Source of the DNA: Eubacteriales bacterium
GTDB taxonomy: Bacteria; Bacillota; Clostridia; Oscillospirales; JAAYXM01
Reading direction: 5' to 3'
Length of the DNA: 60,081 bases
Assembly (NCBI GenBank): GCA_045652405.1
Contig: JAZRUF010000107.1
Coordinates: 1-60,081, forward strand
In this document: positions 37,987-52,598 of the stretch, piece by piece
Layout: each line of letters starts with the position of its first letter
Numbering within the stretch: position 1 is the stretch's first letter
Notes under the pieces: model-generated
Database searches by the model: none
Told to the model about the DNA's origin: nothing
The model's input: only the letters and a program-made list of their open reading frames with translations
Translations under genes and position numbers: made by a program

Positions 37987-38063
37987 CGGGTTGTGGCTCA
38001 GTTTGGTAGAGCGCTGCGTTCGGGACGCAGAGGCCGCAGGTTCAAATCCTGTCAACCCGACCA
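37987..38063 (+). tRNA. tRNA-Pro (anticodon CGG), CCA encoded
   Basis: The cloverleaf folds by hand. Acceptor is CGGGTTG/CAACCCG, anticodon arm is CTGCG-ttCGGga-CGCAG, and T-arm is GCAGG-ttcaaat-CCTGT. Confidence 0.95.
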
Positions 38064-38108: not shown

Positions 38109-38270
38109 GATTGGGAGGATTTGAACCTTAAGAAGGCATGCGGAGAAAAGCAAAATACTCCGGTGGAGTGTTTTGCCGACGCATGGTGCGAAGACGGGTA
38201 CTGAGCGGTTAAACCGCTCGGTCGTCAAGCAAATAAGACGCGAAGCGGCTGTATCCTGTCAACCCGACCA
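38109..38270 (+). ncRNA. tRNA-3'-end-linked structured element, copy 1 (unclassified candidate ncRNA or miniature element)
   Basis: 5' arm 38116-38128 is the reverse complement of the tRNA-Pro T-arm (13/13). Hairpin A is 38151-38175 and the TGGTGCG box is 38184-38190. The bulged hairpin B GACG-GGT-ACTG...CGGT-CGTC is 38193-38226, and hairpin C (GAA loop) is 38236-38250. The tail 38253-38270 is identical to the last 18 nt of tRNA-Pro. Confidence 0.55.
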
Positions 38271-38274
38271 AAAT

Positions 38275-38310
38275 AAAGGAATCTCGTAAAACGAGGTTCC
38301 TTTGTTTTTT
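38275..38310 (+). terminator. intrinsic terminator (near-duplicate of 38068-38103)
   Basis: It has the same stem as the tRNA-Pro terminator, with 2 substitutions at the loop edge, followed by a T-tract. Confidence 0.8.
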
Positions 38311-38315
38311 GTTTA

Positions 38316-38338
38316 GATTGGGAGGATTTGAACCTTAA
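38316..38338 (+). repeat. truncated second copy of the element 5' arm
   Basis: GATTGGGAGGATTTGAACCTTAA repeats 38109-38131 exactly and then diverges. It belongs to an 86-bp direct repeat (38046-38131 versus 38253-38338). Confidence 0.85.
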
Positions 38339-38345
38339 ACAATAG

Positions 38346-40088: not shown

Positions 40089-40165
40089 GCGCTCGTAGCT
40101 CAGCTGGATAGAGTGACTGGCTACGAACCAGTAGGTCAGGGGTTCGAGTCCCTTCGGGCGCGCCA
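40089..40165 (+). tRNA. tRNA-Arg (anticodon ACG), CCA encoded
   Basis: Acceptor is GCGCTCG/CGGGCGC, anticodon arm is ACTGG-ctACGaa-CCAGT, and T-arm is AGGGG-ttcgagt-CCCTT. Confidence 0.95.
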
Positions 40166-40216: not shown

Positions 40217-40378
40217 AGGAAAGGGACTCGAACCCTGAGAGGGCACGAACCGTGAAGCAAAACAGTCCGGTGGACTGTTTTGTAGGTGAGTGGTGCGCAG
40301 ACGGGTACTGAAAGGCAAAGCCTTTCGGTCGTCAAGCAGTGCGGTTGCAAAGCAATCGTTGTCCCTTCGGGCGCGCCA
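40217..40378 (+). ncRNA. tRNA-3'-end-linked structured element, copy 2
   Basis: 5' arm 40221-40235 is the reverse complement of the tRNA-Arg T-arm (15/15). Hairpin A is 40258-40282, the TGGTGCG box is 40291-40297 and hairpin B is 40300-40333. Hairpin C (AAA loop) is 40342-40358. The tail 40361-40378 is identical to the last 18 nt of tRNA-Arg. Confidence 0.55.
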
Positions 40379-40384
40379 CAAAAA

Positions 40385-40412
40385 AGCATCGACGATAGTC
40401 GGTGCTTTTTTT
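40385..40412 (+). terminator. intrinsic terminator (near-duplicate of 40171-40197)
   Basis: AGCATCGAC-gata-GTCGGTGCT followed by TTTTTTT. Confidence 0.8.
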
Positions 40413-40452
40413 GTTTTGTTTTGAAAAAACAAAAGTATTAAATATACAATAA

Positions 40453-47092: not shown

Positions 47093-47179
47093 GCGGATAT
47101 GGCGGAATCGGCAGACGCGCTAGATTCAGGTTCTAGTCGGGGCAACTCGGTGGAGGTTCAAGTCCTCTTATCCGCACCA
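47093..47179 (+). tRNA. tRNA-Leu (anticodon CAG), type II, CCA encoded
   Basis: Acceptor is GCGGATA/TATCCGC, anticodon arm is CTAGA-ttCAGgt-TCTAG. It has a long variable arm and the T-arm GGAGG-ttcaagt-CCTCT. Confidence 0.95.
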
Positions 47180-47181
47180 AA

Positions 47182-47214
47182 AGCTACCCATTGAGGGTAG
47201 CTTTTATTTTTTTT
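47182..47214 (+). terminator. intrinsic terminator of tRNA-Leu(CAG)
   Basis: AGCTACCC-attga-GGGTAGCT followed by TTTTATTTTTTTT. Confidence 0.85.
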
Positions 47215-47218
47215 CTTT

Positions 47219-47375
47219 AAAAGAGGACTTGAATCTTAAGAAGGCAACGAGCGTACAAAAAACGATTCATAATCGTTTTTAGCGAAGTTGGTGCGCAGAC
47301 GGGTACTGAAAGGCGCTGCCTTTAGGTCGTCAAGCAAGTAAGACGCGAAGCGACTGTGTCCTCTTATTCGCACCA
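47219..47375 (+). ncRNA. tRNA-3'-end-linked structured element, copy 3
   Basis: 5' arm 47221-47236 is the reverse complement of the tRNA-Leu T-arm (15/16). Hairpin A, at 47258-47280, has a completely different stem sequence from the other copies. The TGGTGCG box is 47289-47295, hairpin B is 47298-47331 and hairpin C (GAA loop) is 47341-47355. The tail 47358-47375 matches 17/18 of the tRNA-Leu(CAG) 3' end. Confidence 0.55.
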
Positions 47376-47380
47376 AAAAC

Positions 47381-47413
47381 GATAAGGTTCTAAAAGAATC
47401 TTGTCTTTTTTTA
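47381..47413 (+). terminator. intrinsic terminator (unrelated in sequence to 47182-47214)
   Basis: GATAAGGTTC-taaaa-GAATCTTGTC (2 G.U pairs) followed by TTTTTTT. Confidence 0.7.
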
Positions 47414-52318: not shown

Positions 52319-52402
52319 GCGAGTGTGCTGGAACTGGCAGACAGGCACGTTTGAGGGGCGTGTGCTTATGGCGTACGGGTTCAAGTCCCGTCACTCGCAC
52401 CA
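52319..52402 (+). tRNA. tRNA-Leu (anticodon GAG), type II, CCA encoded
   Basis: Acceptor is GCGAGTG/CACTCGC, anticodon arm is CACGT-ttGAGgg-GCGTG. It has a long variable arm and the T-arm ACGGG-ttcaagt-CCCGT. Confidence 0.9.
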
Positions 52403-52450: not shown

Positions 52451-52598
52451 AGAAGGGACTTGAAGCCTAAGAGGGTTTTTGCGTAAAACAAAACAGTCCG
52501 GTGGACTGTTTTGTAGCAAAAAGGTGCGAAGACGGGTACTGCAAAGCGGTCGTCGAGCAAATAGTATGCGAAGCATACGTGTCCCGTCACTCGCACCA
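52451..52598 (+). ncRNA. tRNA-3'-end-linked structured element, copy 4
   Basis: 5' arm 52455-52464 is the reverse complement of the T-loop and T-stem of tRNA-Leu(GAG) (10/10, with partial matches beyond). Hairpin A is 52489-52513 and the GGTGCGA box is 52523-52529. Hairpin B, at 52531-52554, is minimal (ACTGC-aaa-GCGGT). Hairpin C (GAA loop) is 52564-52578. The tail 52581-52598 is identical to the last 18 nt of the tRNA. Confidence 0.55.

Follow-up and report, generated by a model that had tools for sequence, protein, structure and literature searches.

Each of the four transfer RNA (tRNA) genes in a 60,081-nucleotide (nt) stretch of an Eubacteriales genome (assembly GCA_045652405.1, contig JAZRUF010000107.1; the window, by which we mean the whole of that stretch) is followed by one copy of a compact element whose two ends match the tRNA gene that it accompanies. 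The copy examined here, copy 3, follows the tRNA-Leu(CAG) gene and is, with high confidence, an ordinary, slightly decayed member of a large structured non-coding family with a unit length of about 155 bases. The family appears to be undescribed and to fit no known kind. Its members share a conserved multi-branch structure, P1 to P5, on the tRNA-sense strand, and the molecule that folds is most likely RNA; our confidence in both the family and its structure is high. The reading that we favour, to which we give an even chance, is that the family is a mobile or selfish element that carries no open reading frame (ORF) and whose transcript would use two target-matched parts to guide an enzyme encoded elsewhere in the genome, a proposal built on sequence comparison.

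Copy 3 and its tRNA-matched ends

ARAGORN identifies four tRNA genes in the window: tRNA-Pro(CGG) at 37987-38063, tRNA-Arg(ACG) at 40089-40165, tRNA-Leu(CAG) at 47093-47179 and tRNA-Leu(GAG) at 52319-52402, the last of which goes unreported by the Rfam tRNA model at its gathering threshold. The conserved core of the element, GGTGCGMAGACGGGTACTG, is present at exactly four places in the window, one behind each of these genes, and the copies are numbered 1 to 4 in that order. Copy 3 has the tRNA-Leu(CAG) gene as its cognate target; this gene lies on the plus strand, as do all four copies, and is also matched by Rfam RF00005 at 54.4 bits. It is followed by an intrinsic terminator, T1 (47180-47215, plus strand), with an 11-bp stem and a T-run, and the terminator scan placed T-run-tailed, terminator-like hairpins at 47179-47205 and 47381-47405. 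After a gap of 6 nt from the end of T1, copy 3 extends from 47221 to 47375, and its own terminator, T2 (47376-47413), comes directly behind it.

Copy 3 represents its tRNA twice, by an inverted copy at its 5' end and by a direct copy at its 3' end. The direct copy repeats the last 18 nt of the tRNA, GTCCTCTTATCCGCACCA at 47162-47179, which correspond to tRNA nt 59-76 (the last two T-loop nucleotides, the 3' strand of the T-stem, the 3' strand of the acceptor stem and ACCA), as GTCCTCTTATTCGCACCA at 47358-47375, the tail of the element, with a single C>T at 47368 (17/18 identity). These are the only two occurrences of the 18-nt tRNA end with up to two mismatches in the 60-kb window, where 0.02 would be expected by chance. 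The inverted copy, AAGAGGACTTGAA at 47221-47233, is the exact reverse complement of the T-loop and T-stem 3' strand, TTCAAGTCCTCTT at 47157-47169, a 13-nt match for which 0.11 would be expected by chance. This antisense T-arm segment (antiT) consists of AAGAGGAC, which forms the 5' strand of P1 with a partner at 47358-47365, followed by TTGAA, the complement of T-loop nt 54-58, which has no partner inside the element. An earlier, sequence-only reading of this DNA had recognized the tail and its C-to-T change correctly, but had held that identity with the tRNA was limited to that tail, and had thereby missed the inverted T-arm copy.

The same arrangement recurs throughout the family. In most loci measured, the direct repeat begins 18 nt from the tRNA end, at position 59, and the antiT is the exact antisense of the cognate T-arm over approximately nt 51-63, and up to nt 68, so that it straddles the 58|59 junction; its length has a mode of 13 nt and a maximum of 18 nt. 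The antiT tracks the T-loop variant of its own tRNA (TTCGAAT, TTCAAGT, TTCGATT, TTCGAGC, TTCAAAT and others), and when the tRNA changes, both element ends change with it while the core stays constant. No antiT was seen downstream of element-free tRNA genes, which makes it a part of the element and rules it out as a general feature of tRNA flanks. Genes that lack an encoded CCA (loci L061, L064/65, L076 and L082; loci of the family are cited by such numbers) are followed by CCA-less tails, which indicates that the tail copies the gene or its primary transcript rather than the mature tRNA. An origin as a retroviral-type primer-binding site or mature-tRNA mimic was rejected on the same ground, and the repeats often extend into the terminator. 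Divergence is about 1.4% in tails and about 4.3% in duplicated terminators, a difference that is not decisive, since one side of the tail pair alone is free to vary; the tails of loci L106 and L087 carry two mismatches.

The region behind the tail is less constant. In copy 3, T1 and T2 are identical at 25 of 42 aligned bases, which is the background for unrelated terminators in the family (mean 22, maximum 35), in agreement with the initial observation that the two terminators of this copy differ in sequence. Across the family, the second terminator copies the first in 24-26 of 50 loci and is unrelated to it in 24 of 50, so that terminator duplication is indeed optional, as had been proposed from copy 3. 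A second terminator borne by the element itself was considered and rejected; similarities between the second terminators of different tRNAs numbered only two, and those that precede Gut-1-like hairpin arrays (L069, L078) may belong to the arrays.

The family was delimited by a scan for AGACGGGTACTG-N(5-35)-GGTCGTC in one genome per species, which gave at least 117 loci. Among the matches listed, about 80 are true members and the remainder are chance matches in other phyla; the members among them come only from Clostridia genomes and metagenome-assembled genomes (Acutalibacteraceae, Oscillospiraceae, Congzhengia, 'Eubacteriales' and Ruminococcus sp. CAG:563). In loci with enough flank, a tRNA gene on the same strand usually precedes the start of the core by about 110-140 nt, and every member starts about 10-20 nt after an intrinsic terminator. 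The hosts cover 24 anticodon types for 14 amino acids, with tails that equal the last 18 nt of the tRNA with no more than one mismatch, and a single core subtype is found at more than 10 tRNA types. At two loci (L078 and L117) the preceding gene encodes transfer-messenger RNA (tmRNA), and the element there carries the tmRNA 3' end. Genes inside tRNA clusters, together with some tRNA genes of the same loci that end a cluster or stand alone, have no element, nor do tRNA genes in related gut bacteria.

No catalogue that we searched contains the family. Rfam 15 at the gathering threshold returned only tRNA matches in the window; at E values up to 10, the best non-tRNA match in the copy region scored 21 bits against a gathering score of 55, and Rfam searches of the window and the loci together gave nothing beyond tRNA, tmRNA, T-box and Gut-1. 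Phage collections, plasmid collections and viral contigs held no real match to the element, and a literature search that included the core sequence itself found no description of it.

Conserved fold and covariation

The structure was derived by hand on seven sequences and converted into a covariance model, R1. A search with R1 gave 96 matches in 82 sources, on the element strand in all but one weak case (26 bits). Copy 3 matches over the full model length, 1-159, at 116 bits (E = 3.7e-30), and this match, the 13-nt T-arm complement, the 17/18 tail and the position behind a terminator place it in the family. In the R1 alignment of 94 distinct members, 91.1% of cells are standard-paired, as compared to 71.3% after shuffling and about 40% when the partners are slid, and although the alignment was fitted to the model and so favours the structure, the slid controls and the effect size are still clear. 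Changes on both sides occur in 50 of 56 pairs (918 cells), and the covariation score of 0.419, against 0.129, was reached in none of 500 shuffles.

The same alignment identifies the strand. G.U and U.G cells number 272 as opposed to 56 for A.C and C.A, and two U.G pairs are near-invariant, both of which imply that the tRNA-sense strand is the one that folds; an RNA from the opposite strand is ruled out by these counts and pairs. Small minus-strand ORFs that overlap the copies were likewise dismissed, as the substitutions are compensatory within helices. Examples of such compensation include, in P4, GACG/CGTC replaced by GTCG/CGAC in the divergent members L106 and L087, ACTG/CGGT replaced by ACCG/CGGT, and, in the copy 2 orthologue at L058, whose genome is 91% identical, a compensatory A>T/T>A in hairpin A. 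On its own, copy 3 shows no significant structure when folded (z = -1.73 on the plus strand and -0.69 on the minus strand), and the evidence for structure is therefore drawn from the family.

From 5' to 3', the consensus consists of P1, an unpaired TYGAA (the anti-T-loop), P2, P3 with hairpin A, P4 with hairpin B, and P5. P1 joins the 5' half of the antiT to tail nt 59-63/66 and is helix 1 of the R1 alignment. In copy 3, P2 is the triloop hairpin TCTT-AAG-AAGG at 47234-47244 (helix 2; 4/4 pairs covary, 92% paired). P3 spans 47245-47290 (helices 3 and 4) and is made of a closing helix, CAAC/GTTG, then CGT/(A)GCG, in which a U.G is conserved, and hairpin A, which at 47258-47280 reads AAAAACGATT-CAT-AATCGTTTTT. 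P4, the conserved core at 47290-47336 (helices 5-7), is formed by GGTGCGCAGACGGGTACTG, hairpin B (47309-47323) and AGGTCGTCAAGCA, and P5, or hairpin C, is AGACGC-GAA-GCGACT at 47341-47355 (helix 8; 8/8 pairs covary). The first 8 nt of the tail, 47358-47365 in copy 3, supply the 3' strand of P1, and the acceptor 3' strand with NCCA at the 3' end of the element is single-stranded in the consensus fold. The suggestion that the C>T of copy 3 preserves a G.U pair in an acceptor helix thus has no basis, because the element lacks an acceptor 5' strand. Together with a G.A in P4 at 47308/47324, the only non-pair at an otherwise invariant G-C pair, the tail substitution reads instead as slight decay.

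The hairpin A of copy 3 differs from those of copies 1, 2 and 4, and it had been proposed that the hairpin is kept while its sequence is exchanged. In the R1 alignment, all 16 of the P3/hairpin A pairs have changed on both sides among the 94 members, with 89.9% of cells paired; the positions do covary, which speaks against random palindromes and for that proposal. The version in copy 3 is nevertheless no exception: it is the commonest variant, present in 32 of 83 members, with the type of copies 2 and 4 in 26 and further stems in 25. The finding from which the analysis began is real and its two main inferences, the exchangeable hairpin and the optional terminator, hold; copy 3 is typical of the family.

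A possible mobile element or a host RNA

According to the favoured reading, the family would be a non-autonomous mobile or selfish element, comparable in lifestyle to REPINs or MITEs (miniature transposable elements with inverted repeats), that colonizes the 3' flanks of tRNA and tmRNA genes in gut Clostridia. Transcription would start at the strong tRNA promoter and read through T1, in keeping with the position of the element behind a terminator and its apparent lack of a promoter of its own, which together suggest expression by read-through. The 5' segment of the transcript would pair with the sense DNA strand of the T-arm and the 3' tail with the antisense DNA strand of nt 59-76, and the guide so paired would direct insertion or copying at or next to the 58|59 junction of the T-loop. 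The tRNA would stay intact because a full copy of nt 59-76 with a terminator stands on each side of the element.

An ORF-less mobile element is suggested by tandem arrays, by truncated and chimeric copies, and by stacking with other core classes. Tandem units that are 100% identical occur at L023 (two of 201 nt) and L088 (two of 195 nt), and L087 has two diverged tandem units. The distal units of arrays are often 3'-truncated between P1 and P3, as in copy 1, L088, L100, L101, L103, L106, L112 and L019, and arrays mix the standard core, class A, with classes B, C and D that share the same end architecture. The presence of one core subtype across tRNA types and of element-free tRNA genes in related bacteria are further signs of mobility.

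Several points weigh against this proposal. No transposase, recombinase, nuclease or reverse transcriptase is linked to the element: clustering of all ORFs of at least 120 amino acids from 80 loci revealed no recurrent family nearby, and Pfam gave only housekeeping genes for 40 window ORFs, with five of the window ORFs of at least 150 amino acids lacking a match. A promoter belonging to the element was not found, and no conserved -10-like box lies upstream. A metagenome scan with the CorC neighbour and a search of GlnA homologues found no orthologous pair of filled and empty sites, which leaves the insertion boundaries undefined; these searches showed no conserved synteny, and the empty tRNA genes that they returned were all non-orthologous. 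A mechanism that rewrites both ends at every new tRNA would also have to be assumed. In the predicted fold, moreover, the 5' guide and the 3' tail pair with each other in P1, which would have to open for pairing with DNA, and since G.T wobble is also possible in folded single-stranded DNA, RNA is not proven over single-stranded DNA as the folding molecule. Finally, the compensatory evolution at the orthologous locus L058 and the occupation of all four window tRNA genes fit a host function too.

These last two observations lead to the alternative that the element is a host-retained RNA, a cis or trans partner of the tRNA gene such as an insulator or a processing module for transcripts that read through T1, which we consider somewhat unlikely. 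On this account, the element would be maintained by selection on the host, its antiT would bind the T-arm of a tRNA in a read-through transcript, a second 3' end would be available in the tail, and the ends would owe their continued match to gene conversion. Beyond the 4/4 occupancy and the compensatory substitutions between genomes that are 91% identical, it would explain why tails are nearly always identical to the tRNA, and an element that always comes immediately after the tRNA terminator and lacks its own promoter would be co-transcribed. The account is less compatible with the mid-cluster genes, some terminal or stand-alone genes and the related bacteria that do without the element, and from a tuned host module one would not expect tandem duplicates that are identical, units cut short, chimeras or stacks of unrelated core classes. 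Decayed copies, such as copy 3 with its tail mismatch and broken invariant pair or L106 and L087 with two tail mismatches each, speak against it as well, and the CCA-less tails of CCA-less genes exclude a mimic of mature tRNA.

Of the known guide systems, the IS110 bridge RNA offers a parallel to the arrangement of the favoured reading, as it reads both DNA strands on either side of a crossover, with overlap (PMC11208160). Stand-alone copies of an IS110-associated small RNA are reported for Pseudomonas putida (PMC12288879). Like the IS110 bridge RNA and the IS1111 seekRNA, the element is a compact structured non-coding RNA in the range of about 150-250 nt with variable segments that covary with a DNA target. 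It differs in that no IS110-type (DEDD/Tnp) recombinase domain occurs among the window ORFs of at least 150 amino acids, nor any recurrent ORF at the 80 loci; in that its guides are terminal, 13-18 nt long and mutually paired, whereas bridge guides are 4-9-nt segments of internal loops; and in that it has no evident second (donor) loop, with no donor-matched segment identified. Its strand assignment is also the mirror image, and its target sequence is duplicated alongside it. REPIN/REP sequences and MITEs resemble the element in being short, ORF-less, intergenic, multi-copy and hairpin-rich, often near terminators and with no enzyme in cis, but they do not share ends rewritten for each tRNA in place of a fixed terminal inverted repeat, a strict tRNA/tmRNA location, or a complex multi-helix core with RNA-type covariation. 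A tentative extension of the favoured reading is that the family might represent a new class, an ORF-less RNA-guided mobile element in which two segments, one antisense to the T-arm and one sense for nt 59-76, read both strands of any tRNA or tmRNA gene around 58|59, an enzyme acts in trans, and the guides are rewritten at each jump.

An ORF-less derivative of the IS200/IS605 type, similar to PATEs, seems unlikely. It would encode an omega-RNA-like guide for a TnpB-like nuclease encoded elsewhere, with the universal T-loop TTCRA (nt 54-58) as target or target-adjacent motif, insertion immediately 3' of it at 58|59, and a guide made up of the scaffold, about 135 nt long, plus the 18-nt flank (nt 59-76). 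The junction does fall exactly 3' of TTCRA in most copies, the scaffold of about 135 nt does precede an 18-nt segment identical to the flanking target, as in TnpB/IscB omega RNAs, the fold is strand-specific, and a classical target-site duplication is absent. The element nevertheless has no tnpA or tnpB gene near any copy and no match in Rfam, whose families include IS605-associated RNAs. The hairpins adjacent to its ends (T1 and hairpin C) vary in sequence, unlike the conserved left-end and right-end hairpins recognized by TnpA. The additional antisense, target-matched 5' segment would remain unexplained, as would the intact nt 59-76 and terminator ahead of the element and the uninterrupted tRNA copy, and P1 takes up the first 5-8 nt of the supposed guide.

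We regard an intron-like T-loop element as quite improbable. Here the antiT would be an internal guide that aligns a 5' exon ending at nt 58 with a 3' exon formed by the tail, the stretch that runs from 59'-76' through T1 and antiT to the core would be removable from read-through transcripts, and homing would proceed by reverse splicing or break repair. The antiT is ordered as a splice-junction guide, with its 5' half against nt 59-63/68 and its 3' half against nt 51-58, so that one antisense segment spans the junction as in a group I internal guide or the exon- and intron-binding sites (EBS-IBS) of group II, and both the precise 58|59 junction and the conserved core structure agree with the idea. 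The element lies outside an intact tRNA, however, which is complete without splicing, and its core of only about 110 nt has no group I or group II signature, intron core, splice-site signature or Rfam intron match. With respect to group I, RF00028 gave no match at E values up to 10, the junction follows A58 so that the 5' 'exon' ends in A and not U, and the nucleotide before the tail is variable, which leaves no omega-G. For class C group II introns, the position behind a terminator alone fits, with no Rfam match and no domain V-like hairpin. Any ribozyme activity would itself be a matter of prediction.

The 3' ends of tRNA and tmRNA genes are classical integration sites of islands, and a direct repeat that runs from the T-loop to the 3' end is reportedly typical of one integrase class. 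It is nonetheless very improbable that the family consists of relic attachment (att) sites, with the tail as attR, the tRNA 3' end displaced by an element with a T-loop-type tyrosine integrase, and the core as what is left of an arm region: the location, the repeat and the other islands integrated at the same tRNAs (L084, L089, L090, L068, L058) agree with such duplications, but the standard 155-nt units contain no integrase or cargo, unlike tyrosine-integrase att sites and cis-mobilizable elements (CIMEs), one core is shared among 24 different tRNA ends, protein-binding arm DNA would not be expected to covary in the manner of RNA with conserved G.U pairs, and about 55 nt separate the inverted T-arm copy from the direct one, where core-type sites have a spacing of 6-8 bp. 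All membership tests for known systems that could be run having failed, the element is filed under none of those families.

Were the favoured reading correct, gut Clostridia would carry dozens of copies per genome of a compact structured RNA that takes the programme of both its ends from the tRNA or tmRNA gene next to it, a natural form of dual-strand, target-matched recognition with no linked protein gene. The element would offer a route to a new enzyme of RNA-guided DNA insertion or recombination, would explain a source of tRNA-locus rearrangements such as the recombination behind the L108 chimera described below, and would add a large RNA family that Rfam lacks. A host function, if it applied instead, would still make the element a gene-specific partner RNA of a new kind, one that serves tRNA genes.

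Other copies, core classes and neighbouring motifs

The remaining window copies all lie on the plus strand. Copy 1, behind tRNA-Pro(CGG), covers 38112-38340, with a full element at 38112-38270 and a partial second unit after it. In the latter (38271-38340), the tRNA-Pro 3' end, the terminator and the antiT are repeated (88 nt, 3 differences) and the unit stops at TTAA; at least nine further loci have truncated distal units of this kind, which stop at various points between P1 and P3. Copy 2, behind tRNA-Arg(ACG) and with glnA as the downstream gene, spans 40219-40378 and has its orthologue at L058. Its duplicated terminator, at 40379-40425, is absent from that orthologous locus, and the second terminator copy retains the ancestral CGACGATAG where the first has CGACTATAG. 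The region behind the tail turns over quickly, and T2 can be present or absent between close relatives. Copy 4, behind tRNA-Leu(GAG), spans 52451-52598.

Three further core classes were observed. Class B, with the core ...GCYGCCGGTGGCRG.TGAAGGGAG..., is found at L028:690-890, at L076 on the minus strand and as the third unit of L023 (5860-6080), with fragments in L037, L036, L046 and L108. Its antisense part continues across the variable arm in the case of tRNA-Ser or the anticodon arm in that of tRNA-Pro, and in L023 antisense and sense anticodon-stem sequences form a fold-back. Class C is located behind tRNA-Tyr at L034:6790-6955. Class D has a short core of about 85 nt that shares hairpin A with the standard class (L007:2076-2196 on the minus strand, L026:6270-6393 and L112:1449-1567). 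Classes C and D both have an antiT and a tail from nt 59, and are stacked in arrays with the standard class.

At L108:1269-1700 the element is a chimera, in which the antiT matches the upstream tRNA-Pro while the tail and terminator are those of tRNA-Gln. Its flanks are orthologous to the tRNA-Gln locus L049:2488-2800 (85-88% identity), which indicates recombination between copies and is evidence that copies mediate chromosomal rearrangement. A cargo of about 1.5 kb separates tRNA-Met from the antiT in L046 (890-2420, minus strand), and its ORFs include a possible small regulator and a putative hexapeptide acetyltransferase-like protein. The sequence CATCTAAACCGTTCGGCTCTTCCA lies upstream of the element in L046 and L067, with a diverged form in L105. 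What stands ahead of the element in L084, L089, L090, L068 and L058 (first 130 nt) is no more than the 3' part of a tRNA, beginning at the anticodon loop, the footprint of a different island that an anticodon-loop-type integrase inserted into the same tRNA gene.

Other RNA motifs share these flanks. Gut-1 RNA (RF01706) is matched at L067:111-185 on the plus strand and L078:5550-5620 on the minus strand, and similar arrays of short hairpins spaced by (G)AAAT are present at L114:670-860, L106:540-640 and L071. The Gut-1 and hairpin arrays stand directly behind tRNA terminators or the element tail, so that the same flanks collect a second motif. At L117:5007-5258, a T-box leader (RF00230) begins right after the element that follows the tmRNA gene.

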